A DNA stretch of 64,000 nucleotides from Halobacteriovoraceae bacterium. Its GTDB lineage: Bacteria; Bdellovibrionota; Bacteriovoracia; Bacteriovoracales; Bacteriovoracaceae. Positions 9,145 through 41,488 of the stretch are shown here, piece after piece. The position numbers and the translations under genes are program-made. How positions within the stretch are numbered: the stretch's first letter is position 1; each line of letters opens with the position of its first letter. The notes beneath the pieces are model-generated. The model was given only the letters and a program-made list of their open reading frames with translations, was not told where the DNA came from and did no database searches. The stretch is from positions 544,001-608,000 of the forward strand of contig CAVRCF010000001.1 in the NCBI GenBank assembly GCA_963719505.1. Direction: 5' to 3'.

Positions 9145-9640
9145 AGATGGACAATCGACAATCGAATTTATTCTCACTCTATCTTTTGCTATAGGTATAA
9201 CAATGCTTTTTGTCTCCCAAGCCCTAAATATGACAGTAGGGTTTATGGTTCATTATGGAACCTTCATGGGGGGGAGAACATTCTTAAGCTATGACAGTTT
9301 TGGTCGTGATGTTTCAAACTCAATAGGTCAGGCGGGAAATGTCGCCAAAGAGACATTTGATTTTTACAATTTACAGATCCTTGATATTTCTCCTGTTGTG
9401 AAAGTTGTAAAGCCAGAAGATGGAAATGCATTGATGAGTGGAATAACAGCTCAATACGATAAGCTTCTTTCTCCTTTTAAGCTCATCCTCAATGGAGAAA
9501 AGGCAACATTCTATTCTGAAGGTTTCTTGGGAAAAGAGCCGACTCGCGCAAGCTGCTATCAATCGACATGTGCGGCTATTGGTTCAGGTGGTAATTGCAC
9601 TGCAAATATGGATGTCACTCTTTTCGATAATGGATGTTAA
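9125..9640 (+). CDS. TadE-like pseudopilin
   Basis: EDG|QSTIEF motif plus a hydrophobic helix; GGAG SD before the ATG at 9125. Confidence 0.8.
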   Translation: MRTLHSEDGQSTIEFILTLSFAIGITMLFVSQALNMTVGFMVHYGTFMGGRTFLSYDSFGRDVSNSIGQAGNVAKETFDFYNLQILDISPVVKVVKPEDGNALMSGITAQYDKLLSPFKLILNGEKATFYSEGFLGKEPTRASCYQSTCAAIGSGGNCTANMDVTLFDNGC

Positions 9641-10150
9641 GTGAAAATATTTAAGCTATTAAAAAATCAAAAAGGGCAATCTCTAATAGAGTTTGTTTTA
9701 TTTTTGCCTTTTATGATGATGATCTACTCAGTGATCATTAATGTTTCAGGCGCTATAAATGCTTCCCTAAATCAGCAAAAAGTAACAAGGGCTTACTTTT
9801 ATTATAACATGCAAAATAACTCTACTATTCCTAAACCGAGAAGAGATGGAGCAGATCCGTCAGACTCTTGGCAAATGTTCGGCATGCAGATCATGGGCTG
9901 GACAACTGAGCTTGTTGATAACCAACCTGTTGCAGCTTGTTTTAAGTTTAACCTACCTTTAGGAACAGGTGATGGAGATATTTGTGAAGAGGCTTACTCA
10001 GGTAAAGCAACTCAATATATTAGAGTTGGGACTGTGTATGGTGTCTGTGGTGCCACTTACCAAAAAAGGGGAACAAGCAAAGTTAGGGTTCCCTCGGGTG
10101 GGGTCAATGTTGATGTCGCCGTAGCAGCCCAAGGCTGTTTTATCCAATAG
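9641..10150 (+). CDS. TadE-like pseudopilin
   Basis: KG|QSLIEFVLFLP motif; four Cys in the C-terminal domain. Confidence 0.82.
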   Translation: MKIFKLLKNQKGQSLIEFVLFLPFMMMIYSVIINVSGAINASLNQQKVTRAYFYYNMQNNSTIPKPRRDGADPSDSWQMFGMQIMGWTTELVDNQPVAACFKFNLPLGTGDGDICEEAYSGKATQYIRVGTVYGVCGATYQKRGTSKVRVPSGGVNVDVAVAAQGCFIQ

Positions 10151-10225
10151 AGGACATTTCTTCCTCATACTTTTAAAACTATCGTAAGTATATAATAAAA
10201 GGTGAATTGCTAGAAAAGGATTTCT

Positions 10226-11038
10226 ATGAATAGTCGCGCGTTTACCCTCAGTTTGATCATTGCCGTGATAGCGGTCTTTATGGTTCAGTCCTATATCGAA
10301 GGTAGAGAGTCAAAGTTTAAAGAAGAGTATGGGAATATGGTTCCAGTTGTTATCGCAAAAAGAGATATCAATGAGCTTGAACTTATTGACGATCGAAAAG
10401 TTCAAATGATTACGGTTCCTAAAAAATATAGAATGAATGGCGCCTTCGATAAACAAGAAAATCTTTATAATACAATCGCTGCAGTCCCAATAAAAAAAGG
10501 TGAGCAGATCACCAAGCCCAGAGTTACTTACCCCGGTGCACGTTCAGGTTTATCAAGACAAGTTGGAATCGGAAGTCGAGCTCTTTCGGTTCAGGTTAAT
10601 GAAAGTCAAGCTGTTAGTAAGCTTATTAAACCAGGAGACAGAGTCGATGTCTTAACTCTTGTGGATTTTGCCGGCGGTAAAAAAGAAAAAATGAAAGTAA
10701 AAACTGTCTTGCAAGATGTTTACGTCTTAGCAACAGGATTGAACGTCACCAAAGAGATTCCACTCATTGGTATGAAGGTCGATAAAGAAGTAAGAAAAAT
10801 GAACTTAAACAACTACACAAACTTCAATGCCGTGACCTTAGAATTAAAACCATACGAAGTCCAAAAGATGATCTTTCTCATTACTGCTGGTAATGGAATC
10901 TATCTTTCTTTAAGAAATAATGATGACAAGACTATTGAAAGGATAAGTGGAACGAGACTATACGATGTTTTGGGTGAAGATGCCCAGGATGCAAAAGCTT
11001 ACTTCGCAGAACAAGCAGCGCTCAAAAACAAAAGGTAG
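10226..11038 (+). CDS. cpaB: Flp pilus assembly protein CpaB/RcpC
   Basis: SAF-domain VVIAKRDI, RALSVQV, IKPGDRVDV, LQDVYVLA and VTLEL motifs. Confidence 0.93.
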   Translation: MNSRAFTLSLIIAVIAVFMVQSYIEGRESKFKEEYGNMVPVVIAKRDINELELIDDRKVQMITVPKKYRMNGAFDKQENLYNTIAAVPIKKGEQITKPRVTYPGARSGLSRQVGIGSRALSVQVNESQAVSKLIKPGDRVDVLTLVDFAGGKKEKMKVKTVLQDVYVLATGLNVTKEIPLIGMKVDKEVRKMNLNNYTNFNAVTLELKPYEVQKMIFLITAGNGIYLSLRNNDDKTIERISGTRLYDVLGEDAQDAKAYFAEQAALKNKR

Positions 11039-11040
11039 AA

Positions 11041-12525
11041 ATGTTTAAAACGTTATTTTTTATATTTTTAATATCAATAAATGTTTTTGCTCAAGAAGCA
11101 AAAGAGACGAACCTATCAATCGCTATTGGAATTGATGAGGTTGTGAAGCTCCAGTACAAATACAACACAAAAGTTCAGATCGGAAACCAAAAGATTGTCT
11201 CTTTAATTTTAGCACCTTCAAGACGAGAAATTACTTTTCGAGGAAAGAATGCAGGAAAAACTTCAGTTACTGTAAGGGATGCTGCTGGGGATATTAGAGA
11301 TAAATTTATTGTCAGTGTCTCAGCCGATGGCACCTCTCAAACGGTGAGGGAGCTCAGGGACCTTATTGGTAATATCGAAGGAATTGAAGTTCTTATCAAG
11401 GGTGGAAAGGTTGTTGTTGAAGGGATGATTGTCGTTCCTGGTGATATTGGGAGAATCAACACGGTTTTGGCCCAGTATGGAGATGTGGTAAGGCTTATTG
11501 AACTTTCACCTCAAACACAGCGAGTTATTGCTCGTAAGATGCAAGAAGAAATTAATAAAAATAATATGAAAGATGTTACCGTTAGAATCGTTAATGGTGA
11601 TTTCTGGATCGAAGGAGTTGTAAACTCAGAGCAGAAAAAAGCCGTGGCTGATCAAATAGCAAAACAATATCTTCCGGATAGGCTTGATTCTTTAGCGGCT
11701 CAAAGTGGAGGATCAAGTTTTCAGGCCAAAGAGAGATATGCCATTGTAAACTTTGTCTCGGTTAACGAGAAGAAAGATCCTGAACCTCCAGCAAAGCTCG
11801 TTAAAATAAGTGCTCAGTTTGTTGAACTTTCAAAAGACTACCAAAAAATATTTGGCTTTCAGTGGACACCGACTCTTACTTCTGGCGGCTCCATCTCATT
11901 TGGTAAAACAGAGTCGGGTGACGTCACGACCAATGAGAACGACACTTTGAGTGGAACGATAGCCTCTTTGTTTCCAAAGCTTCAATCAGCCAAGCAAGCA
12001 GGTTATGCAAGGGTTATCCAGTCAGCAATGCTGATAACAAAAGATCGGAAACAAGCTACGGTTAGTAAGTCTCGAGCTGTTCCTTACTCCATTGGTGCTG
12101 GTGACCTTCAGACGGCTGGTCAAGCTCAATTTAAATTTTCTTTAACGGTTACGCCGTCAATTGGTGATAAGGAAGTCGTTAATCTAGACTCATTAACAGT
12201 AACGGTGGCATTGCCATCGGGTAGAGCAAACGGTGGACAACCAACTTCAACAGACAACACAATCACAACAAATATTGCAGTTAAGTCCAAAGAATCTGCA
12301 GCCATTGGTGGAATTGTACAGAGTTCTTCAACAACAAGTTATGACAAAGATGTTCAACCTCCTACACCTGAAGAGGGAACCCAGTTACTATTCAACTTGG
12401 GTAGAGGAAAAAGTTATACAACGGACAAAGCACAGTTTGTCGTTTTTGTGACTCCCGAAATAATTGAGTCCGCAGCGGATGGAACAAATGAAATTCGTAA
12501 AAAATTTAGAAAAAGAGAACGGTAA
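11041..12525 (+). CDS. cpaC: Tad pilus secretin CpaC/RcpA
   Basis: Signal peptide, N-terminal GKTSVTV domain, BON-like region and secretin C-terminus (AIGG...FVVFVTPEII). Confidence 0.88.
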   Translation: MFKTLFFIFLISINVFAQEAKETNLSIAIGIDEVVKLQYKYNTKVQIGNQKIVSLILAPSRREITFRGKNAGKTSVTVRDAAGDIRDKFIVSVSADGTSQTVRELRDLIGNIEGIEVLIKGGKVVVEGMIVVPGDIGRINTVLAQYGDVVRLIELSPQTQRVIARKMQEEINKNNMKDVTVRIVNGDFWIEGVVNSEQKKAVADQIAKQYLPDRLDSLAAQSGGSSFQAKERYAIVNFVSVNEKKDPEPPAKLVKISAQFVELSKDYQKIFGFQWTPTLTSGGSISFGKTESGDVTTNENDTLSGTIASLFPKLQSAKQAGYARVIQSAMLITKDRKQATVSKSRAVPYSIGAGDLQTAGQAQFKFSLTVTPSIGDKEVVNLDSLTVTVALPSGRANGGQPTSTDNTITTNIAVKSKESAAIGGIVQSSSTTSYDKDVQPPTPEEGTQLLFNLGRGKSYTTDKAQFVVFVTPEIIESAADGTNEIRKKFRKRER

Positions 12526-14627
12526 TGGCAGGTCATATAATAAGTATTATTGGTGGTAAAGGTGGGGTTGGAAAATCTCAAGTTGCGGCCAATCTCGCTT
12601 TCGCGTTTGCTGCCGAAAACAGATCTAAAACACTTTTGTTGGATTTTGATAAAGTAGCTTCTGGTGATCAAAATATAATTACTGGTATAAAATTTAAAAA
12701 AAGTATAAAAGACTTATCGGAGTTTAACGGGGCTATGGATCCGCGTTCCATCAATATGTTTGTCGGTCAGCATAAAAATGGTGTCCACTTTATTGGGATG
12801 CCAAATGATCCCAATGTTTCAGACTCTATTGATCCTGAGGGGTTAGGCAAAACTCTTAAAGCCTTACCAAATCTTTACCAAACCACAGTCATTGATTGTG
12901 GAAGTGAACTCAACGATCTCGCTTTAAAGGCACTCGAATTTTCAACACTTATTTTTTTAGTGGTGACACCAGATCTTTTGGCTGCAAATCAGACAAAGAG
13001 AGTTTTCTCAGATCTTACAACAATGCTTTTTCCAAAAGAGATGATGCATATTATTGTTAACCAATTTCAAAAAGGCCATCCTGTTACTCCCGAAACTATC
13101 GGCAGACAAATAGGAAAACCTGTTTTTGGTGTTGTCGCAAAAGATGATCAAAGTTGCTTAAGGGCTTTATCAAGTTCTACTCCTTTATATGTTATTGCTA
13201 AGAATTCACCTTTCTCTCAAGGTATTACTGATATTGTGAGAAAGTTGAAGCAAAGAAGTATTTTAAGTGCTTTAGAAAAACTTCAAAAACCAGAAGGAGC
13301 TGCACAAAAGAAAAGTGATAACAAAGCTTCTGCAGTTAAAGGTGGAAAGAATCCTTGGTTGGATCTTAAATCTCGAATTCATAAATCTCTCGTTGAAGAG
13401 ATGGATATGAAAAAACAAGATGATAATGATCCTAAAGCAAAAATTATTCTAAGAGAGAAGACAAAAAAGTTGGTTGTAGAACTTTTAGGTAAAGAAGATA
13501 CCAAAGGTGTTTTAAACACCCGCGAAGATATGAATCAAATTGTTAAAGAAGTTCTGGATGAGGCTTTGGGTCTTGGTCCACTTGAAGATATGTTAGCAGA
13601 TAAAACAATTTCGGAGATTATGGTCGTTGGTCCAGATAAAATATTCTACGAGCAAGGTGGTAAGGTTAAGATGTCTGAAGTTGTCTTCACTAATAATCGC
13701 CAGGTGTTAAATGTCATAGAGAGAATCGTTGCTCCTATTGGAAGGCGTATTGATGAAAAGACTCCTTATGTTGATGCTCGACTACAAGATGGCTCAAGAG
13801 TTCACGCCATCATTCCTCCTTGTGCATTACAGGGTGGGACAATAACAATTCGAAAATTTCCTGAAAATAGACTGACCTATAAAGATCTTGTTAACTTTGG
13901 CTCATTGACTATGAACATGGCTGACTTTTTAAGAATTTCTGTTGAGGCCCATCGAAATATCGTCGTCTCAGGTGGTACAGGATCTGGTAAGACGACTCTT
14001 ATAAATATGCTTGGGGGTTTTATTCCTGCGAACGAGAGGATTATTACCTGTGAAGATGCAGCTGAGCTCGATTTTCCTCAAGATCATGTTGTGAGTCTCG
14101 AGACTAAGCCGCCTTCATTAGAGGGGGATGGTGCTGTCGATATTAGATGTCTGGTAAAGCAGACCCTAAGAATGCGACCAGACAGAATTGTCGTAGGAGA
14201 GTGTCGTGGTGGTGAAACACTTGATATGCTTCAGGCAATGAATACAGGCCACGATGGCTCAATGACAACAGTTCACTCAAATACGCCAAGAGACTGTATG
14301 TCTCGACTCGAAACACTGGTTCAGTACTCGGGTGTTCCAATCTCACCTCGAGCGATTCGTGAAATGATCGCCTCAGCTGTTCATATGGTTATTCAACAAT
14401 CAAGACTTGAAGATGGTTCAAGAAGAATTATGAATATTACTGAGATTGGAGGAATGCAAGGTGATATTATTACATTGCAAGATATCTTTGTCTTTAAGCA
14501 AGAGGGAATGAATAAACAAGGAAAAATTGTTGGAAAGTACATGGCCACTGGTTTTATTCCAAAGTTCATCGAGAACTTAGAAAAGAAAGGTTATAAAGTA
14601 CCTAGAGGGTTGTTTAACAATGAATAA
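12525..14627 (+). CDS. tadA: Fused CpaE/TadZ-like (MinD-type) domain plus CpaF/TadA pilus ATPase
   Basis: N-terminal GGKGGVGKS deviant Walker A; C-terminal GGTGSGKT, EDAAEL, LRMRPDRIVVGECRG and MNTGHDGSMTTVH. Confidence 0.93.
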   Translation: MAGHIISIIGGKGGVGKSQVAANLAFAFAAENRSKTLLLDFDKVASGDQNIITGIKFKKSIKDLSEFNGAMDPRSINMFVGQHKNGVHFIGMPNDPNVSDSIDPEGLGKTLKALPNLYQTTVIDCGSELNDLALKALEFSTLIFLVVTPDLLAANQTKRVFSDLTTMLFPKEMMHIIVNQFQKGHPVTPETIGRQIGKPVFGVVAKDDQSCLRALSSSTPLYVIAKNSPFSQGITDIVRKLKQRSILSALEKLQKPEGAAQKKSDNKASAVKGGKNPWLDLKSRIHKSLVEEMDMKKQDDNDPKAKIILREKTKKLVVELLGKEDTKGVLNTREDMNQIVKEVLDEALGLGPLEDMLADKTISEIMVVGPDKIFYEQGGKVKMSEVVFTNNRQVLNVIERIVAPIGRRIDEKTPYVDARLQDGSRVHAIIPPCALQGGTITIRKFPENRLTYKDLVNFGSLTMNMADFLRISVEAHRNIVVSGGTGSGKTTLINMLGGFIPANERIITCEDAAELDFPQDHVVSLETKPPSLEGDGAVDIRCLVKQTLRMRPDRIVVGECRGGETLDMLQAMNTGHDGSMTTVHSNTPRDCMSRLETLVQYSGVPISPRAIREMIASAVHMVIQQSRLEDGSRRIMNITEIGGMQGDIITLQDIFVFKQEGMNKQGKIVGKYMATGFIPKFIENLEKKGYKVPRGLFNNE

Positions 14628-15579
14628 GATCTTAAGTTTTCTTTTTCTTCTTTCAACTTCAGCTTTTGCTCAAGAAAAAGAGCCCGAGCTAAACTTTATG
14701 ACCGATATTTTAGGACGAAAAGGTCTTGTTCTTCTCATCTTTGTCATCGTCTTCGCTTACTCTTACAAAAATTCATTAAAACTTTTTGATTGGATTGAGG
14801 ATCAAACCTTTGGTACTCGAGATTATATTTTACAAAAGTGCGAACTTCTTCATATTGAAATCGAACCTAGACGAATCACTTATATTCTTCTCTTTCTCTC
14901 CTTTGGTTTCAGCGTAATCGTTTTTGGAATTTTCGCAGTCTTTGGACACTTCTTAGCTGGTGCTATAGTTGCAAGTATTACCTCTATCATTGGTTGGAGG
15001 GTGCCAAGGCCTTTTATGGATGCACTTGTTAATAGAAGAATAAATGCCTACAAGAATCAAATGGTTGATGCTCTTCAGCTACTTTCAAATGGTCTTCGTG
15101 CTGGACTTTCTCTACCTCAGTCTTTAGGGATGGTTGTAGATGAATTACCAAATCCGGTTGCCCAAGAGATGAACTCTGTTCTTCAACAAACCAAAATCGG
15201 TGTTCCTCTAGAGGAGGCATTTGAGAATTTAGTAACAAGAATTCCAACTCAAGACAATGATATGTTCGTATCTGCAATTTCTATCTTAAAGGAAACCGGT
15301 GGTAATCTTTCAGAAGTTTTCGACACAATCGCAGCTGTTATTCGTGAACGGGTAAGACTGCAACAAAAAATTGACACTTTTACGGCACAAGGTAAGTTTC
15401 AAGGATTTACTATATTTGCTATGCCATTCGCCCTTGGAGCCGTTTTTGCAGCTTCTGACCCCGCCTCAATGATTCCACTGTTTACAACACCTTTGGGCCT
15501 GGTCATGCTTGTAGCGGCCTTAGGATTGGACCTGTTGGGCTTGTGGGCGATATTTAAAGTCGTAAAAATAGAGGTTTAG
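14620..15579 (+). CDS. tadB: TadB (type II secretion system F family) inner-membrane platform protein
   Basis: DALQLLSNGLRAGLS, ETGGNLSE and RER motifs; TM helices. Confidence 0.9.
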   Translation: MNKILSFLFLLSTSAFAQEKEPELNFMTDILGRKGLVLLIFVIVFAYSYKNSLKLFDWIEDQTFGTRDYILQKCELLHIEIEPRRITYILLFLSFGFSVIVFGIFAVFGHFLAGAIVASITSIIGWRVPRPFMDALVNRRINAYKNQMVDALQLLSNGLRAGLSLPQSLGMVVDELPNPVAQEMNSVLQQTKIGVPLEEAFENLVTRIPTQDNDMFVSAISILKETGGNLSEVFDTIAAVIRERVRLQQKIDTFTAQGKFQGFTIFAMPFALGAVFAASDPASMIPLFTTPLGLVMLVAALGLDLLGLWAIFKVVKIEV

Positions 15580-15635: not shown

Positions 15636-15683
15636 ACTCAAAGACTATAAAAAGTATTTTGGATGAAACCAAAGGATAAGGGA

Positions 15684-17341
15684 ATGAAAAAAACAAATTT
15701 GATGCTACTTTTACTAGGCGTTTTTGCACTTTCTGCGAATGCTGGAGTTAACCTAAAAAATGGTAACTTTTATATCTCCTACACTGATATTATTGTTCCA
15801 GGTGGTGGTAAAAAACTAGAAATTACTCGTACCTATAACTCGAAGTCAACATCAGTTGGATGGTTTGGTTTTGGTTGGGGTAACGTTTACGAGACAAGTC
15901 TTATACCTTCACCGGACGGATGTGTTGTTGTTAGCGAATACGGTTCTGGTGGAAGACAAGATTTTGTCCAAAATCTAAAGTCGACCCAGAAGAAGCAGCT
16001 CAAAAAATTGTTGAGGCGATGAGAAAAAAATCAAAAACTGAGCTTCCATGAATCATCTTTAAAAACGTTAATAGAAAGATTAAAAACAAATTCTGACCTT
16101 CGTCATGCTTATGCAAAAAACTTTGGTGTTAAATCAACAATTGCAAAAGGGACGACTCTTTATTCAAACGAGAGAGGAATTCAGGAAATTAAAGTTACTG
16201 GTCAAGGTTATGAAAGACACTCAAATAGTGGAAAGAAAGAATACTTTGATAAAAGTGGTAACCTCACAAAAATCCAAGAAAAAAATGGATACTATGTTGA
16301 ATTCAGATATGACAACAATAAGCTACGAGTCTTTAAAAGATTCACAAGCTAAGCAAGTATTCTTTAAGTGGAATTCAAATGGAAAGATCTCTGAACTTTG
16401 GTCAACAGGTGATGCTAAGGCTACTTTTAAGTATGATGGCGACAACATGGTTTTCTCCCAAGATGTTGCAGGTAATAGTTATGCATTTAGCTACGATAAA
16501 AGTCATAACTTAACTAAGGTTGTTTATAACCATTACAGAGCGAAGGATGTTAAAGAAGACGCTATGATAATGGAATATGAGCCAAAGACGTTCTTTGTGT
16601 CGAAAATCATCGACAGAAGTGGAGATGCTGTAAGCTATAAATATGGTTCCAATCCTAAAAATGCTAGATAATCACTACTGGACTGAAGTTACTAAAACTG
16701 GTTTCTCAGGGAAGCCGGTAACTAATAAGTATGAGTATGAAATTAAATCTCGTCCAGATGGATCAAGTTATACTTACAGAATTTATACGAGTATTAATAA
16801 TATTAAAACTGAGACCATATATTCTGAATGTTGTGGGCTTCCACTTAAAATTGCGAGAGGGAAACACGTAACAAACTTTGAGTATAATGATAAAGGCTTA
16901 CTCACTAAAAAGCAGTCTACTAAAGGTGATTTCGTTCAAATTAAATATGACAAAACGTTGAATAAAATATCTGAAGTCAAAAACAATGCTGGGTGGACTA
17001 AGTTTAAGTATGACAGAAAAGGTAACTTAACAACGGCTCAAAATAGTAAAAGCCAAGCTGTAAAATTGATTTATGACAGAAAGGGAAAGATCAACAAAAT
17101 GGTTGATAAGAATATGAAAACAAAGGAAACAAGAACATTATCCTTTAAGTATAATGCGCTTGGAAAGCCAGTTGAGATTTCAATGAGTAAGGTTGGAAAA
17201 ATTAATGTGGCTTATGATAACTTTGGTGAGATTAAGCGAGTTGAATCTAAGGCTGGTCATAAAATGGCTCTACAAGTTACCCAGGCTTTTCAAAACCTTC
17301 TATCAATTGTTAAGCCCGCAGGTGTCAACTTAAATATGTAA
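15684..17341 (+). CDS. Secreted YD/RHS-repeat protein (Bd0109/WapA-like), split by about 4 apparent indels
   Basis: Signal peptide, VNLKNGNF...RTYNS...GWFGFGW N-terminal RHS-associated domain and many xYDxxGxL repeats; one protein continues across ORFs 15663, 16105 and 16643 and the intervening frames. Confidence 0.85.
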
Positions 17342-17362: not shown

Positions 17363-17695
17363 ATGAAAAAATTACTAGTTACTTTTACAATGCTTACCTC
17401 GGTAGTCGCATTTGCTGAATGTTCAGTGGATGTTTCAAAGCTTGAAGGTCTCGACTTTCAAAGTGTGCCATTTTGCTCGTTTGATGTTTCGAACATGGGA
17501 ACACAAAAGACCGACTCTTTGAAAGAGGTTGCACAGAAGTATAATGAACTAGCGGGTACATGTACTTGTCCCGGTGGAGATAATGGCGGTGATAACGATG
17601 CTTCTCGTTGCGCTATTAATAGAATTGAAGCAAAACCTGTTAGCGGAAGAGAGGGGTATTCAACACTTCAATCTGCTGGTGGTGTACAAAACTAA
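17363..17695 (+). CDS. Small secreted Cys/Gly-rich protein (positional equivalent of Bdellovibrio hit/Bd0108)
   Basis: Sec signal ending AFA, 110 aa, SD AGGAG, directly after the YD gene and before a strong hairpin. Confidence 0.75.
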   Translation: MKKLLVTFTMLTSVVAFAECSVDVSKLEGLDFQSVPFCSFDVSNMGTQKTDSLKEVAQKYNELAGTCTCPGGDNGGDNDASRCAINRIEAKPVSGREGYSTLQSAGGVQN

Positions 17696-17703
17696 AGAAT
17701 GAA

Positions 17704-17745
17704 TTTAATATAGCCCTGTTCCAATGTGAACAGGGCTATATTAAA
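17704..17745. terminator. Perfect 18-bp hairpin, probable terminator
   Basis: TTTAATATAGCCCTGTTC-N6-GAACAGGGCTATATTAAA. Confidence 0.7.
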
Positions 17746-17767
17746 ACTCCCACGGAACGGAAGGTTT

Positions 17768-18094
17768 ATGAAGATTTACGGATACATCTTATTTTCAATT
17801 TTATTAGTCTCTTGTGCCTCAACGAATAAAAGAGGTATAGCAAGCGACCAAAAATCAAGAAAAGATATTGAGCAATCAATTTTTCACGATTTAAGGATGG
17901 CAGAGTCACATCTAGCGACAGCCAAAATAAATGGTTATCGTACATACTTATCCTCACTAAATGAAGTTCAATTAGAACAACTCCAACAAGAAATTAAAGA
18001 CATTCGTTTGCGATCAAAGGATCTTCATCAGGCTGTTACTGACTGGATCTCAACCCTATCACATGCTGAAATGAAAGAGATTCGGGGGAAATAA
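17768..18094 (+). CDS. Hypothetical lipoprotein
   Basis: MKIYGYILFSILLVS-C lipobox followed by KRGIAS; helical remainder. Confidence 0.75.
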   Translation: MKIYGYILFSILLVSCASTNKRGIASDQKSRKDIEQSIFHDLRMAESHLATAKINGYRTYLSSLNEVQLEQLQQEIKDIRLRSKDLHQAVTDWISTLSHAEMKEIRGK

Positions 18095-18099
18095 ATTCT

Positions 18100-19536
18100 A
18101 TGAAATTTTTGATATTATCTCTATTTATCTTCTCTTCAGTTCAAGCAGTAGTCTGTGAAACCCCCACAAAAGAGGGACTTCTCAGTTACATGAACGAATT
18201 TGTTAACGAGAGAATGAAGGTCACCGGCGTGGACAGTGAGGCTCTTTTGAAGAGTTTTACTAAAAAGTACGCAGAGTGTGAAAGTGAAATAAATGCAAAT
18301 AACGTGGCTGGCTGTTTTGAAAATCTTAAAAATTTTTCAAGAAGGAAAATCGCGGTGTCTGAAGCAGACTTTGCAGGATTTGAAGTTTCAAGAGATGACT
18401 ACTTTAACTCTCGCCCAAAAGAGGCTTATGCCCTACCAGAAGAACTACAAGGTGGAATCCCTGACAACTATAGAAAACTGGCAAAGGATAAAGGTTGGAA
18501 GGTTATAGAATACAGATCACGTACCGTTGGAAATCCTGGACGTCATGGTAACGGACGTTCATACAACAGACTTCTTATTCTTGTAGAGGGAAGTCCTTAT
18601 GATAAATATATACAATTCACATTGCCTAATGAAAATGGCAAACCTCAACAACTTGTGGATTTTATCTCTGTAGATAAATCAAAATCACCCAAAGAAATAA
18701 CTTTTAATCAGTTCGATAGAGATATTGAAGGCAAAAATCCAAAGCCTAGAGAGTTTTTTGATTCGTGTTTTAGTTGCCATCCAAACGGTATGAGAAACCT
18801 CTCGCCAGCTCCAGGATCTGTGTCAAAAGAAGACACTGAAAATTTAGATTACATGAATAATAAGATGGATAGTTATAAAAAGATGAGCTGGGGAAAAGCA
18901 GTTGTTCCTGAGCATGATGGGCCGGCCTTGGGTGAAGCGCAGGGGTGTGTTCGTTGTCACAATGGATACACAGGGCAAGAAGGTATCTCCAGAGGTGCTC
19001 TAACAAACTCTACAGCTGGTAGTCATATTAGACATAAGGTCGAAGGCGACGCAAGTATGCCTGTGGCAGATTATAAATCTGAGCAAGACCTTCTTGATTA
19101 TCTTAAAAATGTTCAACTGCAACTCTCAGAGCCAGAAAGAAAAGAATTATTTAATGAACTTTATATTAAAAATAGCGACGATGCCTTTAGTTTAGTAACG
19201 TATCAAAGAATTCTAAAATTTATGAATGAAAAAGGTAAACTCTCTAATAAAGACTTTACAAAAATGAAGTTCGTATTAAACGGAAATCCCGACTATCCAA
19301 ACTGTTTGGGAGACGAAAATTGTTTTCAAGGTTTAAACAAAAGAACAAGCGAGTCTTATAATATTAAAGACAGGGCTGTTGTTTATGAATCGTTTAAAAA
19401 GTGGGCGACAGAAGGCTGTGACTTTGGTGAGCCTGTGCCTAATGTTAATGAGAATCCAAGGACTTTAGAAGAAAATTCCGGGACTTCGGGCGGTGCCCAG
19501 AGTACACCAATAAGCTCGGGAGTAATAAATGATTAA
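18100..19536 (+). CDS. Secreted di-haem c-type cytochrome of unknown function
   Basis: Signal peptide (VQA); two CxxCH motifs (CFSCH, CVRCH); distal SMP. Confidence 0.75.
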   Translation: MKFLILSLFIFSSVQAVVCETPTKEGLLSYMNEFVNERMKVTGVDSEALLKSFTKKYAECESEINANNVAGCFENLKNFSRRKIAVSEADFAGFEVSRDDYFNSRPKEAYALPEELQGGIPDNYRKLAKDKGWKVIEYRSRTVGNPGRHGNGRSYNRLLILVEGSPYDKYIQFTLPNENGKPQQLVDFISVDKSKSPKEITFNQFDRDIEGKNPKPREFFDSCFSCHPNGMRNLSPAPGSVSKEDTENLDYMNNKMDSYKKMSWGKAVVPEHDGPALGEAQGCVRCHNGYTGQEGISRGALTNSTAGSHIRHKVEGDASMPVADYKSEQDLLDYLKNVQLQLSEPERKELFNELYIKNSDDAFSLVTYQRILKFMNEKGKLSNKDFTKMKFVLNGNPDYPNCLGDENCFQGLNKRTSESYNIKDRAVVYESFKKWATEGCDFGEPVPNVNENPRTLEENSGTSGGAQSTPISSGVIND

Positions 19537-20257
19537 GCTTATTATTTTTATTTCTCTATTGGCTTTAAATTGTTTCTCTAGCATTCATAATAAATCAGAA
19601 AAAGAGGTTTTTGACACTATTGACTGCAAGGCGGAAGTTTCTAATCAGTTAGTACAATGGAATAGTTTGAGTGATTGGACTAGGCACTTTGTTGATAAAA
19701 AGACGATAAAGTTTATGTCACCGACAAAAGAAATTGGAAGATGGGTTGAGATCTATTTTGGTAAGATTAATAATGAAATGAAATTGGTTACACCTACAGA
19801 GCTGCTAGTCGTTAAATTTGGAAAAAACTGTGAAAAGAAAGTCTACCTAAAAAAATCAGATAGGGTTGTCAATGGAAATGAATTCTCTGATGGAGACTTG
19901 GCGAATTTAGTAGAATCAAATAAAAATGGAATCATTTATACATTTGGCCCTCAAATGCCTTTGTCTCTAGATGGGATAAAAGAGATTAGAGCTGCAGCTA
20001 AAAAATCTGGCTTAAAACTCACTCTTTTATTGCCTTCAAAAAGTTCAATGAAAGAATTAAAAGAGCTTTTAAAGAAAAAGAAAATAGAAGTTGATAGCCT
20101 TGTGGTGTCAAACTCTATGGAGCTATCCTATAGGGGAGCTTTTCTGCATCTGCCTTCAGTGCTGACTTATCATAATAAACAACTTGCTCGCCGAGCAAGA
20201 CCTGGACATGAAAAATCATATTACTATGAAAAATATCTAGAAAAGGAGATGAAGTGA
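19529..20257 (+). CDS. Secreted hypothetical protein, possible thioredoxin-like C-terminal domain without CxxC
   Basis: Signal peptide; IIYTFGPQMPLS...HLPSVL pattern; overlaps both neighbours. Confidence 0.6.
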   Translation: MIKLIIFISLLALNCFSSIHNKSEKEVFDTIDCKAEVSNQLVQWNSLSDWTRHFVDKKTIKFMSPTKEIGRWVEIYFGKINNEMKLVTPTELLVVKFGKNCEKKVYLKKSDRVVNGNEFSDGDLANLVESNKNGIIYTFGPQMPLSLDGIKEIRAAAKKSGLKLTLLLPSKSSMKELKELLKKKKIEVDSLVVSNSMELSYRGAFLHLPSVLTYHNKQLARRARPGHEKSYYYEKYLEKEMK

Positions 20258-22002
20258 AAAGGTTTTCAATTACCCTCTTTCTTTTTTGTTCAACCGTCTT
20301 TGCTCAAGATTTTTGTGAACTCGCTGTAAATAAACCAATAAAAAGTGTAATGCTCCCAGGAGCGCCAAGTTGGTTTATCAGTGCAAACCCAGATGGTAAG
20401 TCTGTCGGTGTTATAATGAATGGCGAAAATAGAATGTTTTCAATGGATGAAGTTGATGAAAATGGTGAGCCCAAAATGATAAACGTTCCTGGTGACGTTG
20501 ATCCAGTGTATTCACCTGATAGTTGGTTTTTTACAAGTCCAGGAAAATTTTATGACGCTGAGGTTATCCCTGAGATGCTTTCCAACGAAGAGAATGCTGA
20601 AAGTTTAGAAAGATTGGGTGATACATCCCTTCATAGCGTTTACCAGTCAATTGGTGTTCTTAAAACCGATAGTAAAACTAAGGCTGAGTATATTTACATT
20701 GCGGATCCGAATTCGGTTCAAGACAATATATTCGGATATTTAGAATACTCTATTATGTCTGCGACGAGAAACCCTACAACAAAAGAAAAAACTTTAAAAG
20801 AAGTTGATAAAGGAATTTTGTGTAAAGGCTTTGTCGGTCATACACCTATGATTTCCTCTGATGGAAAATACCTTTCTATTATTAATGATGAAACGATGAC
20901 AACTCAGATTTTAAAAGTTGATACAAGTAAAGGGACATGTAGCCTTATGGTCGACCTAGGTGTTCCTACGGGTAAAGTTTCATTTAATATGAGTGAGGAT
21001 CCTAGAAAGATTACTTTTCACGTGGATAAGCACAATACTACGATTGATTGGTTTGAGGGGATTCCCTACAATATGTCTAAAGATACCTACGTAATGGATT
21101 TTGATGTTCAAAACGATGGAACAAAAGATGAAAAGTGGGATATTGCTAGCCTTCAACGAATTTCAAATAATAATGAAACAGGGACAGGGGTCTACTACCC
21201 ACGATTCACCAGAGATGGTGATATTATCGCTATTAAAAATGCTGGTGATAATTACTATTTAGAAAAGTATGACCTTAGTAATGGAACTGATGCTTCTTTT
21301 GATAGAAACCTTTTATACCCTGTCTCAAAAGAAGTTTATAGTTGTGAATCTCCTGAGTTTCAAAAGTTTGCGGCGGTCTATGGACTAGCTAGTATTTATG
21401 CTGAAATTTGTGAGGACAATCAAAACTCTATTCGGGAAAAGGATGCTGTGCTAACCGTTTTAGCCATGGATAAAGACAATTGTGAAAGTTTAGTTAACAA
21501 GTACTTTGAATCAGGATCTGGAAAGATCGATTCGAGCAAAGTAAAAAATTTGAGTGAGAATAAAAGAAGATCAATCGAATCGATAACAAAAGAAGAGATG
21601 CTTGGGGTGTGCCCTGAAAGTAAAGCAAAAGATAAAGATGTTGATACATTAGTTGTCTCCAATACAGTGGTGGCCGATACCCCTGAAAATGCTTTCAGAA
21701 GAAACTGCTCAGGCTGTCACTTACCAGATGAGACCAGTGGAGGTTACTCCTTTCTGACTGACGACGGGTCGATTAATAATGGAAGTGGTTCTGTAAATGG
21801 TCTCAACGCTAACTCAGCTTGGAAATCAGTGAATCTTATGCTGAATAACGATTCAATTAATCAGATGCCACCAAATGGTCATCAAATGTCTGAAAAAGAT
21901 CTTCGGAATACAGTTGAATATCTTAAATCTCAGTTGTCAGATAATGCACAAATCAAAGCAGTCGAAAAACTTTTAGGAAAAAAGATTAGAGACGAATACT
22001 AA
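20254..22002 (+). CDS. Secreted beta-propeller-like protein with a C-terminal cytochrome c domain
   Basis: Signal peptide (VFA); PD40/TolB-like blade motifs (SANPDGK, PVYSPDS, PMISSDGK, PRFTRDG); CSGCH...MPP. Confidence 0.72.
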   Translation: MKRFSITLFLFCSTVFAQDFCELAVNKPIKSVMLPGAPSWFISANPDGKSVGVIMNGENRMFSMDEVDENGEPKMINVPGDVDPVYSPDSWFFTSPGKFYDAEVIPEMLSNEENAESLERLGDTSLHSVYQSIGVLKTDSKTKAEYIYIADPNSVQDNIFGYLEYSIMSATRNPTTKEKTLKEVDKGILCKGFVGHTPMISSDGKYLSIINDETMTTQILKVDTSKGTCSLMVDLGVPTGKVSFNMSEDPRKITFHVDKHNTTIDWFEGIPYNMSKDTYVMDFDVQNDGTKDEKWDIASLQRISNNNETGTGVYYPRFTRDGDIIAIKNAGDNYYLEKYDLSNGTDASFDRNLLYPVSKEVYSCESPEFQKFAAVYGLASIYAEICEDNQNSIREKDAVLTVLAMDKDNCESLVNKYFESGSGKIDSSKVKNLSENKRRSIESITKEEMLGVCPESKAKDKDVDTLVVSNTVVADTPENAFRRNCSGCHLPDETSGGYSFLTDDGSINNGSGSVNGLNANSAWKSVNLMLNNDSINQMPPNGHQMSEKDLRNTVEYLKSQLSDNAQIKAVEKLLGKKIRDEY

Positions 22003-22011
22003 GGATATAAA

Positions 22012-22734
22012 ATGAAGTTTTTATTTATGACGGTTTTACTCTCATCCTCATCGGTTGTAACCGCCCAAGAAAATGACTTTACACCAAAGTTTGGAAGCTT
22101 TAATGGCCACCATATCTCCTCCTTTGAACCTTGTGTTCATAGAGAGCAAAGAGGCGGCTGGTATGATCACTGCTTCTTTAACATGGAAGGGACCAACAGT
22201 TTTGGAGATAAGGTGTCTCCTGAAGCCAAGGAATGTGGAGTTGAGGCAAACAAAAGACTTCATAATTGGCTTAATACAAAGGGCAGCGATGTAGAAAATG
22301 CTATGTCAGTCCTTGAAAGAGTTCATGGGAGTAAATCGATCTATATTATTGTGACAGATACTATGGGGACGACCATTCCAGGGCAATCCAGAGAATCGTC
22401 TAGTTTATGGACATGGTCAGGAACAGGTGAAGGTTCAAACGGTCGTGGACATTACTTTAAGTTTAATATTGGTATCTCTAAAACTGGTAAGTGCTCTATA
22501 CCAACAGAAGATGAAATGCTCTCTACAATTAGAGGATGGGTTGGAGAAGAGAAGTTTGACCTAGAGCTTAGCAATATAGTTGCAGGGGCTTCTGAATCGG
22601 TTCCTGTCAGCGTTGAGGATTCACCTCGTACATTTCTTCAAAAAATCTTTGGAACAAAAGAGAGCAGGGCTGAGAAGCGCGAGGCAAGACAACAGCGTAG
22701 AGAGCTTCGTAGACAAGGTGTTCGAGATAATTAA
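22012..22734 (+). CDS. Secreted hypothetical protein
   Basis: Signal peptide, four Cys and a charged C-terminal tail ending GVRDN. Confidence 0.7.
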   Translation: MKFLFMTVLLSSSSVVTAQENDFTPKFGSFNGHHISSFEPCVHREQRGGWYDHCFFNMEGTNSFGDKVSPEAKECGVEANKRLHNWLNTKGSDVENAMSVLERVHGSKSIYIIVTDTMGTTIPGQSRESSSLWTWSGTGEGSNGRGHYFKFNIGISKTGKCSIPTEDEMLSTIRGWVGEEKFDLELSNIVAGASESVPVSVEDSPRTFLQKIFGTKESRAEKREARQQRRELRRQGVRDN

Positions 22735-22757
22735 GTTAAAATAATGAATAAAAAATA

Positions 22758-22784
22758 GACAGTGACTAAAGTCTGGTCACTGTC
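22758..22784. promoter_or_regulatory. Inverted repeat upstream of a sigma54 promoter (candidate activator site)
   Basis: GACAGTGAC-N9-GTCACTGTC. Confidence 0.45.
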
Positions 22785-22819
22785 ATCACACAAAATCAAG
22801 CATTTATACCTTTCTTTTT

Positions 22820-22836
22820 TTGGCACGTTTCTCGCA
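22820..22836 (+). promoter_or_regulatory. Sigma54 promoter
   Basis: TTGGCAC-GTTTC-TCGCA with exact GG-N10-GC spacing. Confidence 0.75.
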
Positions 22837-22871
22837 TATACTAGTGTAAGAGAAATAACAGGAGAGAGATT

Positions 22872-23054
22872 ATGAAATCACTATTTTTAACAGCAATTTT
22901 GGCATTAACATTTTCAACAGTGGCTAGCGCCTTTGAAACAAGTGGAGTTGAATGTCCAGCACTTGCAGAGTCAAACAAAAGAGAAGGTAAAGTTGTCGCT
23001 GAAACTTCAACTGCATCTAATGAAACACAAGTATCTAACGTAACAGAAGAATAA
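22872..23054 (+). CDS. Small secreted peptide, paralog 1
   Basis: SD AGGAG, Sec signal (ASA) and the core GVECPALAESNKREGKV shared with paralog 2. Confidence 0.85.
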   Translation: MKSLFLTAILALTFSTVASAFETSGVECPALAESNKREGKVVAETSTASNETQVSNVTEE

Positions 23055-23102
23055 AAGTTACCTGGTGATTTTTTCACCAAGTATTCTTCCCTTTCCCAAA
23101 AT

Positions 23103-23135
23103 AGACCACGTTTTCCCCGACGTGGTCTTTTTTTT
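23103..23135 (+). terminator. Intrinsic terminator
   Basis: AGACCACGT-N8-ACGTGGTCT followed by a T run. Confidence 0.8.
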
Positions 23136-23195
23136 ACACTGTCAAATTTTTACTCAACCATTTATCGTAAAAACGAGGTGTTAGCCCTGTAAATC

Positions 23196-23212
23196 TTGGC
23201 ATGTTGCTTGCT
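23196..23212 (+). promoter_or_regulatory. Sigma54 promoter
   Basis: TTGGCAT-GTTGC-TTGCT with exact GG-N10-GC spacing. Confidence 0.8.
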
Positions 23213-23245
23213 TATATATAAGTAAGAAAAACAAAGGGAGAGATT

Positions 23246-23425
23246 ATGAAAGCATTATTTTTAACAGCAATTTTAACATTAACAATTTCGAGCGTTGCTC
23301 AAGCATTTGAAGTTCAAGGCGTAGAGTGTCCAGCACTTGCAGAGTCAAACAAAAGAGAAGGTAAAGTTATTAACGAAACATCTTCTACAGTAAAAGCTGA
23401 GACAATAGACGTTATTGGAAACTAG
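23246..23425 (+). CDS. Small secreted peptide, paralog 2 (59 aa, absent from the ORF track)
   Basis: Manual translation MKALFLTAILTLTISSVAQAFEVQGVECPALAESNKREGKVINETSSTVKAETIDVIGN; SD GGGAG. Confidence 0.85.
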   Translation: MKALFLTAILTLTISSVAQAFEVQGVECPALAESNKREGKVINETSSTVKAETIDVIGN

Positions 23426-23862
23426 TAAGCCTGTCCTTCAGGCTTTTTAGCTCCTGGGGGATTAGACCCAAAGAGAGACTTTACATACAGAGACATCGCC
23501 ATGATTTCTTTATCTGTTAAGGTTTTCTCAAAAGCTCGCATACCTTTACTAGGTATTCCATATCTAATGATCTTATAGATATCTTGTGTAGAGCCTTTTC
23601 CGTAAATCCAAAACTTGTCCGTCAAGTTTGGACCAACTAAGCCTCCGCCTTTATACCCATGACATGAATTGCAATGTCTTGAATAGAGCTTTTCTGTTTT
23701 GGCCATAAGCGCAGTATCTTCGCGAACACTCTTGAATTGACCAATATTAAAATCATTTTGATTATCAAAATCAATCTCTTGAACAGGCGCTTGTTTAAAG
23801 CATGAACTACTTATTAATAATATTATCCAAAGCTTTCTTTTCTGAATGATGAAGTTCTTCAC
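23422..23862 (-). CDS. Mono-haem cytochrome c (CcoP C-terminal-like), possible lipoprotein
   Basis: CNSCH, GPNLTDKFWIYG and GMRAF motifs. Confidence 0.85.
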   Translation of the reverse strand: MKNFIIQKRKLWIILLISSSCFKQAPVQEIDFDNQNDFNIGQFKSVREDTALMAKTEKLYSRHCNSCHGYKGGGLVGPNLTDKFWIYGKGSTQDIYKIIRYGIPSKGMRAFEKTLTDKEIMAMSLYVKSLFGSNPPGAKKPEGQAY

Positions 23863-24142
23863 TAGTCTTCCCGTTTTGTCTTATTCGTTGTCTTCTTTTC
23901 TTTAGGATGGCGCTTTGTTTACTTTTAACACTGTCACTGCCTGAGAAGAGATTATTACTTATCTGTTTTGTCTTTTTTACTGTGTTATCAACACTTTTTG
24001 AAAAAGAGCTTTTTATGTCACTCCCCAAAGGTCCGGTGAATCCAGAAATATGCTGAAAGAGAGGTTTATTTGAAATGGGAATTGATAAAACAATAAAGCT
24101 TATAACAAACGCGATGGTTGACTTAAAAATTATTCCTAACAT
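23807..24142 (-). CDS. Hypothetical membrane-anchored basic protein
   Basis: N-terminal TM segment from the ATG at 24142; basic C-terminus. Confidence 0.6.
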   Translation of the reverse strand: MLGIIFKSTIAFVISFIVLSIPISNKPLFQHISGFTGPLGSDIKSSFSKSVDNTVKKTKQISNNLFSGSDSVKSKQSAILKKRRQRIRQNGKTSEELHHSEKKALDNIINK

Positions 24143-24143
24143 A

Positions 24144-24548
24144 TTAAACCTCTTTAGCTTCAAGTGGATTTGCATAAAAATGCACCTTACAATTATAAGA
24201 ATCAGTAAGGGTATAAAGTTCATATTCTAAATGGGTCGCGATTTTGTAGTCTGCCTGGTCGACATCTTTTATCAAAGAGAGAGGAGGTTCAAGCTCGCAA
24301 AAAAGGTCACTTTCAGTTTCTAAATTAGTGAGAAGCTGCCCTAGAAGAATATTCATACTCTCTACGAACAAAGAAAAGTCGACTTGCTTGGATGTTTCAC
24401 ACACCACAAAACCACAAAGCTCACCTTTGATGGGAAATAGAATACTATTGATATTAGAGATCTGCTGCTTCTGAGGACTTTCGGCTGCTAATTTCAGGAC
24501 CGCCTGACCGTACACGTTAATGTTTGAAGGGGACGAGCTAGAAATCAT
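24144..24548 (-). CDS. CheX/CheC-like phosphatase-fold protein
   Basis: ExxN motif (ESMNILLG), upstream GELCG strand and downstream PP; adjacent to a receiver protein. Confidence 0.55.
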   Translation of the reverse strand: MISSSSPSNINVYGQAVLKLAAESPQKQQISNINSILFPIKGELCGFVVCETSKQVDFSLFVESMNILLGQLLTNLETESDLFCELEPPLSLIKDVDQADYKIATHLEYELYTLTDSYNCKVHFYANPLEAKEV

Positions 24549-24938
24549 CTAAACCTCTTCCATATTTGAAATAAGCTTTTCAATAGAATTAATTAAAGTC
24601 TCTTTGGTGAAAGGCTTTTGAAGAAAGTCTGAAGCCCCAGAACTGATGGCATCAATGACAATATTCTCCTGCGCCAAGGATGAGATCATGATAATGAGAA
24701 CATCTTTGAAGTTTTCAGAGATCTTTTTAGCGAGTTCAAATCCACTCATGCCGGGCATAACAATATCAATTATTGCAATATCGGGTGCTCTTTCGTTCAA
24801 AGAGTTTATGGCCTCTGCACCGTCGGCAGCCTCTCCAATTATTGAGTATCTTTGAGAATCCAGCATTTGTGAAATACTCGTCCTCGAAAAATCTGAATCA
24901 TCTACAATAAGAATTTTATAGGTTTTTTCTGCATCCAT
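24549..24938 (-). CDS. Single-domain response regulator (CheY-like)
   Basis: ILIVDD, DIVMPGMSG, ISS and KPF motifs; SD GGAG before the ATG at 24938. Confidence 0.92.
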   Translation of the reverse strand: MDAEKTYKILIVDDSDFSRTSISQMLDSQRYSIIGEAADGAEAINSLNERAPDIAIIDIVMPGMSGFELAKKISENFKDVLIIMISSLAQENIVIDAISSGASDFLQKPFTKETLINSIEKLISNMEEV

Positions 24939-24992
24939 GCATTTGTCTCCGTTGTAACTATAGTGTAACGCAAAAGATTGGATGGTGAAAAT

Positions 24993-25018
24993 AAAAAAGG
25001 GACCCATTCGGATCCCTT
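24993..25018 (-). terminator. Intrinsic terminator after lon
   Basis: Minus strand AAGGGATCC-GAAT-GGGTCCCTTTTTT. Confidence 0.75.

Positions 25019-39944: not shown

Positions 39945-41488
<1,544 letters not shown>

Follow-up and report, generated by a model that had tools for sequence, protein, structure and literature searches.

Do the secreted proteins that are encoded side by side next to a Tad/Flp pilus operon and a YD/RHS-repeat gene share a C-terminal tail, and would such a tail sort them out of the cell? The question is raised by a locus in a 64,000-nucleotide stretch of DNA from a Halobacteriovoraceae bacterium, called the window below (G000:C1:544001-608000); the genome, G000, measures 3.69 Mb in 5 contigs with 37% GC and, despite this small number of contigs, has a marker completeness of only 83.5%. 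The means by which Bdellovibrio-like predators send proteins past their own periplasm are still being sought, and a sorting tag of the kind proposed in the original prediction, in which five signal-peptide proteins with different cores end in a common post-Sec targeting signal, would have mattered in this respect; what we found is not such a tag. Two of the five proteins, with unrelated cores, carry a portable tail that is private to their two families. We consider it moderately probable that the window combines a hit (host-interaction) locus with its pair of small peptides, an inserted cytochrome block, and a private docking or tethering tail on a protein of 478 amino acids (aa) and another of 240 aa. 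The five proteins and the two tails, with the evidence for each (ORF, open reading frame; pLDDT, predicted local distance difference test), are the following:

17363..17695, + strand: orphan protein of 110 aa with a signal peptide, six Cys and a polar end, in the slot of the first small neighbour of the YD gene (ORF).
18100..19536, + strand: secreted di-haem cytochrome-c-like protein of 478 aa with two CXXCH motifs (ORF, CXXCH motifs).
19420..19533, + strand: tail of the 478-aa protein, with motif A (VNENPR), a Gly/Ser/Thr-rich run and the end GVIND, without the amphipathic segment (family alignment, pLDDT).
22012..22734, + strand: secreted protein of 240 aa, unknown family (ORF, model).
22591..22731, + strand: tail of the 240-aa protein, with motif A (VEDSPR), a short amphipathic FLQKIFG, a lineage-specific Arg/Glu-rich helix and the end GVRDN (family alignment, pLDDT).
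22872..23054, + strand: hit-locus-type small secreted peptide, copy 1, 60 aa (family alignment, synteny).
23246..23425, + strand: hit-locus-type small secreted peptide, copy 2, 59 aa, tandem duplicate of copy 1 (identity, DNA repeat).

The five ORFs and their quoted C-terminal strings could be read directly in the sequence as described, and each of the proteins begins, by our own heuristic, with a signal-peptide-like N-terminus. In the families of the 478-aa and 240-aa proteins, the tail spans ~35-45 residues and is composed of motif A (V-[NE]-D-[SG]-x-R), in most lineages a Phe/Trp-rich amphipathic stretch of ~10 residues, and a Gly/Ser/Asp-rich run ending in Q or R. The homologues of the 478-aa protein all show, after their last conserved Cys, V-[ENV]-D-[GS]-x-R followed by variable Gly/Ser-rich sequence and ends such as GSxSQQ. 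Six homologues of the 240-aa protein seemed at first to have an unconserved tail; the member from genome G014 ends in I-Q-D-S-N-R, G-F-L-N-R-I-Q-N-F-F, and SSGSAR, the same three-part build as in the 478-aa tails, and the full module is present in four of five further tails of this family, that of G093 keeping the first part only. When seven tails of each family were aligned (alignment A7), the Arg of motif A was invariant. Profiles also connected the two families in both directions. A hidden Markov model (HMM) of eight tails of the 478-aa family alone placed C-termini of the 240-aa family at ranks 1-4 of 4,056 proteins (12 of them spiked in; E 0.005-0.23), and the reciprocal HMM, made from five tails of the 240-aa family, placed 478-aa-family proteins at ranks 1, 3, 4, and 5 of 4,064 (20 spiked in; best E 4.8e-5). 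The first tail profile that we used (A6) was discarded as insensitive, having given matches in 7 of 237 genomes and overlooked five 240-aa tails plain to the eye. Gene conversion between the tails was likewise rejected: no DNA repeats link them, and the last 36 nucleotides of tail pairs are identical at 11-20 of the 36 positions.

In AlphaFold2 (AF2) models the tails are predicted to be disordered, with pLDDT <50 in the 478-aa protein at residues 446-478 and in the 240-aa protein at residues 195-217, and helices predicted in the latter at 208-212 and 216-234. The amphipathic segments have hydrophobic moments of 0.33-0.65 and eight of ten lie in the top 14% of their own shuffles; the FLQKIFG-containing segment of the window is not in that top 14% (0.46). 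The window's two copies differ from the common build in other ways too. The 478-aa tail has no amphipathic part and its GVIND extension is unique (a V at -3/-4 occurs in 0 of 19 homologues), and the 240-aa tail has an added Arg/Glu-rich helix common only to two homologues of 81-87% identity. Both tails appear to be degenerate, the likeness between VNENPRT and VEDSPRT being a worn form of a module kept in both families elsewhere; the 478-aa copy would have lost the amphipathic part and the 240-aa copy would have gained a charged helix. The tail would serve as a flexible docking or tethering element, by which both proteins reach a common partner or membrane surface, and not as an export ticket.

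The cores of the two proteins are poorly characterised. The 478-aa protein has 21 homologues, all with both CXXCH motifs invariant, and no Pfam or NCBIfam family match; its AF2 model reaches a predicted template modelling score (pTM) of 0.76, and its look-alikes in the Atlas are hypothetical proteins, some with cytochrome c domains. A Foldseek search against the PDB returned no match at E<=0.001 for either model, and the best match of the 240-aa model in a wide VIA search was a weak, thermolysin-like one (Z 5.5, root-mean-square deviation 3.8 over 128 residues). The spread of both families was surveyed in 237 genomes (69 genera) of the bacterial family to which G000 belongs, earlier searches having covered 201 of its genomes. 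The 478-aa family occurs in 15 of the 237 and the 240-aa family in 13, with 11 genomes holding both, 4 the 478-aa family only, 2 the 240-aa family only, and 220 neither; a prior look at five genomes besides G014 that have a 478-aa-family gene had found a 240-aa-family gene in each (5/5). The order of the 478-aa gene and the 242-aa gene that follows it is kept in G014 and in genus g7. The 242-aa protein and the 582-aa protein encoded in the same operon do not carry the shared tail. A portable disordered tail thus stands on two uncharacterised, co-occurring periplasmic proteins, and private tails of this sort are cheap handles for interaction partners.

A general sorting signal should recur on many secreted proteins of a genome. 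Whole-proteome analysis, which covers G000, started from 4,240 ORFs predicted with a crude codon-score caller; 3,891 proteins of >=50 aa were sorted by our own heuristic, not by SignalP, into 957 signal-peptide-like and 2,144 cytoplasmic-like proteins, with ~790 membrane or ambiguous ones set aside. The secreted set so defined, into which all five proteins fall, shows the excess of aromatic last residues expected from outer-membrane proteins, a positive control. Val at -3/-4, one of the shared traits first put forward, occurs in 12.4% of the 957 secreted and 11.3% of the 2,144 cytoplasmic-like proteins, a difference within chance, and the acidic/polar...Arg patterns common to at least four of the five are not enriched in secreted proteins ([NQ][KR].[DE], 5.3% of secreted versus 5.9% of cytoplasmic tails). 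With the five left out, the end pattern GV.{1,3}$ is found in 15/952 secreted versus 16/2144 cytoplasmic-like proteins (p 0.048) and V[IVQR][NDG][DN]?$ in 4/952 versus 3/2144 (p 0.21); the '...PRT' motif is confined in G000 to two proteins of the locus. Runs of neighbouring proteins with similar ends are common: in 150 of 922 runs of eight consecutive secreted proteins, at least five share a residue at an adjacent pair of the last five positions, as against 12.3% with shuffled gene order. Polar tails of at least 25 aa occur on 19 of 957 secreted proteins (2.0%) versus 2.8% of cytoplasmic-like ones, yet 3 of these 19 belong to this locus. When the last 45 aa of the secreted proteins were compared all against all with BLAST, 108 pairs had E<0.05, 35 with unrelated cores, none of which includes the five, and a discriminative gapped-pattern search in G000 found no pattern carried by them, while recovering patterns resembling the outer-membrane beta-signal, again a positive control. 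The same survey showed a Cys at -2 in 38 of 957 signal-peptide-like versus 28 of 2,144 cytoplasmic-like proteins (about three-fold); we rejected it as a shared signal, its carriers having no common motif, and it probably reflects ordinary terminal disulfides.

Searches for further carriers of the tail ended similarly. Tail HMMs of the 478-aa family (19 tails, or a 6-member subset) found no match beyond the query in the G000 proteome, and HMMs, tail BLAST, regular expressions, and gapped patterns revealed no further tail member in this genome. In five other genomes, the A7 profile retrieved at E<1e-5 exactly the two genes in four and none in G159; a candidate third carrier in G066 (E 0.03) was rejected because it is not a C-terminus and looks spurious. 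Neither many secreted carriers per genome nor enrichment at secreted C-termini was found, and the original prediction had itself named a lack of such enrichment relative to controls as evidence against a general post-Sec tag. Since the tail is private to two families and without genome-wide enrichment, a general or predator-wide sorting or secretion signal is not supported.

Known genome-wide C-terminal sorting signals also differ from the tail in build. PEP-CTERM/exosortase, GlyGly-CTERM/rhombosortase, LPXTG/sortase and the C-terminal domain of the type IX secretion system (T9SS) have many cargoes per genome and a dedicated sorting enzyme, and their tags consist of a transmembrane helix with a basic cluster or of a folded domain of ~80-100 aa. 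Like these tags, the tail is a portable C-terminal element of Sec-exported proteins with unrelated cores; unlike them, it has two carrier families per genome, no hydrophobic helix, and ~35-45 disordered residues. We saw no hydrophobic transmembrane helix with a basic cluster and no folded domain of ~80-100 aa in the tails, which are 35-47 polar disordered residues long, and a Pfam and NCBIfam scan limited to the neighbours of the locus detected no sortase-like enzyme among them. A limited search of the literature on Bdellovibrio prey and secretion signals, by titles and the openings of abstracts, found no C-terminal tail of this kind. C-terminal amphipathic anchors that hold soluble proteins at the membrane, as in low-molecular-weight penicillin-binding proteins (PBPs) and MinD-type membrane-targeting helices, offer another comparison. 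The tail resembles them in having a flexible linker and then a putative short amphipathic helix near the C-terminus (helix 208-212 in the AF2 model of the 240-aa protein may be of this kind), but its helix is followed by the Gly/Ser/Asp-rich run, is preceded by V-x-D-x-x-R, which such anchors do not need, and is missing from the window's 478-aa protein and from the g7 lineage.

The two peptides of ~60 aa have a different history. They are paralogs, with 37/47 identities (79%) and a 165-nucleotide tandem direct DNA repeat that is 78% identical, and therefore not independent cases among five supposedly different cores. A search with the single sequence found relatives in 18 of the 201 genomes of the family; the profile found them in 160 of the 237, in 35 of 69 genera and usually in two copies per genome. 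In an alignment of 26 sequences (A3) the Cys is invariant and the Arg nearly so, within the core [ED]-C-P-x3-[QE]-[ST]-N-K-R-E-[AG]-K. The profile matched 206 clusters in a library of 1.84 billion representatives, and the best 150 are 44-100 aa long, so that among these the family stands alone and is not a module of larger proteins. The Cys is kept in 145 of the 150, 112 of them end in K, Q or R, and position -3/-4 is aliphatic in 83 (Val in 50), which makes Val near the end a trait of the peptide family itself. The peptides had been described as little more than a signal peptide plus the tail; their 'tail' appears to be the whole mature chain, and its 'Arg motif' the family core C-P-x3-[QE]-x-N-K-R-E-x-K. 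With hhalign, the shared tails (A7) matched the mature peptides (A8) with a probability of 0.2%, and strict motif A was found in 2 of 80 small YD neighbours versus 0.21 expected (p 0.02). The proposal of a portable tail on unrelated cores thus stood for the genes at 18100 and 22012, by the cross-family profile ranks and the co-occurrence of the families, and fell for the two peptides. Downstream of the first peptide gene comes a terminator-like hairpin (23103-23128), strong and with a T-run, and a related half-site (23182-23199) stands between the two genes.

The peptides gain meaning from their position, for which the remaining features of the locus are needed:

7891..15579, + strand: Tad/Flp pilus operon with Flp pilin, A24 prepilin peptidase, RcpC/CpaB, secretin, fused ParA-like + TadA ATPase, and TadB/C-like T2SSF protein (Pfam).
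15663..17341, + strand: Bd0109-type YD/RHS-repeat gene, last in the Tad operon, broken into three frames (DUF6531 and RHS_repeat in Pfam, YD_repeat_2x in NCBIfam).
17768..18094, + strand: lipoprotein-like coiled-coil protein of 108 aa, first gene of the inserted cytochrome operon (ORF, lipobox-like LLVSC).
19529..20257, + strand: secreted protein of 242 aa, unknown family, always adjoining the 478-aa gene, with the end EKEMK (synteny in G014 and two g7 genomes).
20254..22002, + strand: secreted protein of 582 aa with a C-terminal cytochrome c domain (Pfam Cytochrome_CBB3, residues 474-557; synteny in G014).
23807..25007, - strand: convergent conserved neighbours (111/138-aa protein, 134-aa protein, CheY-like receiver), the boundary of the locus in relatives (blastp synteny, Pfam Response_reg).

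In relatives, the Tad genes are followed by an intact YD gene (542-559 aa), a variable gap, the peptide gene or genes, and a convergent block of small-protein, CheY, and Lon genes. The YD gene lies within 1.5 kb of the peptides in 11 of 17 short loci, longer fetches place it upstream in G001, G002, G014, and G097, and in 12 of 12 further loci it is followed by two or three small, polar, Cys-containing proteins with signal peptides. The product has the traits of a Bd0109-type YD protein (secreted, ~550 aa, N-terminal DUF6531, RHS/YD repeats, last in the Tad operon), the window's copy being broken, and shows 35-36% identity to a 550-aa protein of genomes of f9, another family of the phylum. Its gene was matched in 143 of 151 genomes sampled across the phylum (G000 included), as a single open frame in the others matching. 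The window thus has a short ORF with a Sec signal after such a gene at the end of the Flp/Tad cluster, set off in G000 by a 5.5-kb insertion, and the small gene is tandemly duplicated, as in most relatives, which have two copies. From this arrangement, the window appears to hold the hit locus of a Bacteriovoracaceae-type predator, with the gene at 17363 in the variable slot of the first small neighbour, and the two peptides can be assigned as new members of the known kind of hit-locus small protein. The block 17363-22734, six genes over 5.5 kb between the YD gene and the peptides, can be taken as an insertion into the variable gap, which holds other genes in G014, G001, and G002; besides the gene at 17363 it consists of the cytochrome operon (108, 478, 242, and 582 aa) and the 240-aa gene.

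Published descriptions, in the portions that deal with this locus, present Bd0109 as an RHS/YD protein encoded beside the Flp genes that binds Bd0108, an intrinsically disordered protein of 101 aa with a signal peptide (PMC3818213, PMC4267844). In Bacteriovorax (Halobacteriovorax) marinus SJ, the hit gene is described there as tandemly duplicated (BMS0183/0184), each copy 34 aa shorter and weakly similar (PMC3526173), and the pair adjoins the Bd0109 homologue BMS_0182 (PMC3526173, PMC4267844); the absence of significant homology to Bd0108 is stated in PMC4267844, in agreement with our A3 profile, which in two genomes aligned the signal peptide alone of a 101-aa CxxC protein (8.2 bits). As far as these portions go, the window resembles B. 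marinus SJ in having a Tad/Flp operon, a YD protein, and tandem signal-peptide proteins of ~60-67 aa with little likeness to Bd0108, a resemblance to BMS0183/0184 by layout and published description, not by sequence alignment. It differs in its 5.5-kb, six-gene insertion between the YD gene and the peptides and in its broken YD gene, and the spread of the peptide family (160/237) and its Cys...NKRE core come from the present analysis, not from those descriptions. The likeness to Bd0108/Bd0109 of Bdellovibrio bacteriovorus HD100, as described there, lies in a small, polar, Sec-exported protein (disordered in the case of Bd0108) beside an RHS/YD protein at the Flp/Tad cluster; the window's peptides are 40 aa shorter, have one conserved Cys in place of CXXC, and show homology limited to the signal peptide. 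By analogy with Bd0108/Bd0109, the YD protein and the control of the pilus would be the periplasmic targets of the peptides. When the YD protein of G002 (residues 20-551, A4) was co-folded with its cognate mature peptide (residues 19-57, A5), the score of 0.16 against a mark of 0.32 spoke neither for nor against binding. Two genomes from a different family of the phylum have, in the slot behind the 550-aa YD gene, a 101-aa protein with a signal peptide and CxxC, in line with what has been published on Bd0108. This CxxC gene is itself followed, in two loci of that other family (L043, 1984-2184, and L044, 1917-2111), by another small secreted protein, of 64-66 aa; with its single Cys, ...SGR..., and a polar chain rich in Lys, Ala, and Thr, it recalls the window's single-Cys peptides, although the profile match is not significant (1.4 bits). 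These tiny peptides are now placed in a large conserved family of a locus that controls predatory versus axenic life style in Bdellovibrio, and one Cys plus NKRE provides a defined motif to mutate in marine predators.

A further similarity links the tails with the small proteins. The last residues of the 478-aa and 240-aa proteins (before the slash) and of three small proteins (after it) are, in each genome:

G066: Q, Q / Q, Q, Q
G109: Q, Q / E, Q, Q
G146: R, R / Q, Q, R
G093: R, R / V, R, R
G014: R, R / R, R, R
G000: D, N / N, E, N

Of the 60 pairs that can be formed inside genomes, 39 agree in their last residue, a value that none of 20,000 permutations reached, and the signatures follow lineages (one genus has ...GS-x-Q, another has ...[GS]-x-R, and G000 has ...GV-x-[ND][DN]). 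This agreement across five protein classes is suggestive, and it constitutes a small testable oddity.

How well does a private docking tail account for all this? Several points weigh against it. The amphipathicity test is modest, and because the E-values are weak, with one alone below 0.001, the case for a tail common to the two families is carried by ranks, C-terminal placement, and co-occurrence. This co-occurrence comes from about four genera (g63, g12, g7, g1), whose genomes, being related, do not count as independent cases. Low scores were obtained by the tails of the window itself: that of the 240-aa protein ranked 126 with the HMM of 478-aa tails and 128 in another tail-HMM search, and the 478-aa protein is not among the matches listed for the reciprocal HMM, so that the module is recognised in G000 only via relatives. 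In g7, the tails retain motif A only and the profile fails. On the side of the hit locus, the membership and role of the peptides follow from position, since their likeness to the 101-aa Bd0108-type protein ends with the signal peptide. The similarity of the two tails might then be no more than that of ordinary low-complexity disordered extensions, alike by composition and chance, as the original prediction allowed. In favour of this explanation, nothing sets the five proteins apart statistically in G000, polar tails are as common on cytoplasmic-like as on secreted proteins, the more remote homologues in the 240-aa family bear a different tail or lack one, and the cross-family HMMER E-values are mostly >0.001. 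It was already disfavoured and we regard it as unlikely: C-terminal ranks 1-4 of 4,056 (~4e-11 by our own arithmetic) and four of the top five of 4,064 would be very surprising by chance, both families show, in the same genomes, one ordered architecture of three parts, and the two families co-occur strongly. The tail could also be a C-terminal propeptide, with V-[NE]-D-[SG]-x-R as a processing site after which the remainder is removed in the periplasm, a transient segment for maturation or inhibition of two cooperating proteins. Motif A is indeed the best conserved part and holds the sole invariant residue, Arg; what follows it varies by lineage in length and kind, the tail is predicted to be disordered and would therefore be accessible, and the 240-aa core weakly resembles zincin-type peptidases. 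Nevertheless, the Z of 5.5 of that resemblance is under the tool's meaningful level, no HExxH was seen in the 240-aa sequence, and the amphipathic segment and the Q/R end are conserved within lineages, as would not be expected of a discarded peptide; we consider this explanation very improbable.

That the tails and the hit-type peptides agree in their last residues is not accounted for by a pure two-family docking tail, and this keeps alive the idea of a common receptor. On this idea, the tail is a private sorting or hand-over tag: one co-evolving receptor, the Bd0109-type YD protein or a Tad-associated part, reads the tails and the ends of the small proteins, and about five proteins are handled, exported, or delivered jointly. 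The last-residue matches in 39 of 60 pairs are its main argument. In addition, a peptide and the 478-aa protein of G066 both end in GSGSQQ with only 20 of the last 36 nucleotides identical, which places the sameness at the protein level and argues against gene conversion; four of the eight secreted proteins of G000 ending in V[IVQR][NDG][DN]? sit in this locus; a 61-aa protein in the same slot of the same-genus genome G001 ends in EVVND; and the first small YD neighbour in G014 has INDGSR. Against it, the permutation test overstates the case, with three genera behind it, and in a fourth lineage (g7, G159) the residues agree less well (Q, R / V, Q, R). The tails and mature peptides did not align with hhalign, strict motif A is present in just two of the 80 small YD neighbours, none of four larger proteins in the YD-to-peptide gap of relatives has such a tail (0/4), and the YD gene is broken in G000 itself. 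The proposed link to the Tad secretin or the YD protein reflects no more than where the genes lie in G000: elsewhere, those for the 478-aa and 240-aa proteins are distant from the Tad/YD locus, on other contigs in G014 and other genomes. We therefore hold a hand-over tag to be quite unlikely. A more novel form of it would be a private sorting code, in which the C-terminal signature of the small peptides, the first YD neighbour, the di-haem protein, and the 240-aa protein drifts jointly under one receptor that reads free C-termini. For that receptor the Bd0109-type YD shell suggests itself first, and such a code, if true, would tie the enigmatic hit locus to a defined set of clients, although it seems very unlikely to us. 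The docking or tethering tail on the 478-aa and 240-aa proteins, in combination with the hit locus, thus remains the reading that we prefer.

The other genes of the locus deserve some comments. Four relatives have the Tad genes in the same order, as do two genomes from a different family of the phylum. One of these genes (12525-14627) encodes a 700-aa fusion of a ParA/MinD-like (TadZ-like) domain with a TadA-type T2SSE ATPase, which relatives carry too (699-748 aa). The lesions of the YD gene, an in-frame TGA near 16020 and frameshifts near 16330 and 16666, lie within 1.7 kb after 8 kb of intact Tad genes, and tblastn with the intact 559-aa homologue of G002 spans the three frames; the window's copy would be either a real pseudogene of this hit-locus gene or a local assembly error. 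The 110-aa protein encoded at 17363 has just one weak relative across 201 genomes, and an 18-base-pair perfect inverted repeat or hairpin lies directly 3' of its gene (17704-17745). The hairpins, together with the half-site between the peptide genes, suggest that the small genes may form separate short transcripts. A 102-aa counterpart of the 108-aa lipoprotein is encoded in G014 upstream of the 476-aa gene, and the four-gene secreted operon at 17768-22002 (coiled-coil lipoprotein, di-haem 478-aa, 242-aa, and 582-aa cytochrome c proteins) is conserved, also in locus L002 of G014; it may represent an undescribed periplasmic redox system. Beyond the convergent neighbours, the Lon protease gene (25056-26742, - strand) is split by a single-base frameshift in a highly conserved stretch (...GP / LRDRMEVI...) that has no homopolymer run. 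Further along the window, positions 40001-44000 have a GC of 0.48-0.49 versus a background of 0.37 with few ORFs called, and are probably a ribosomal RNA operon.

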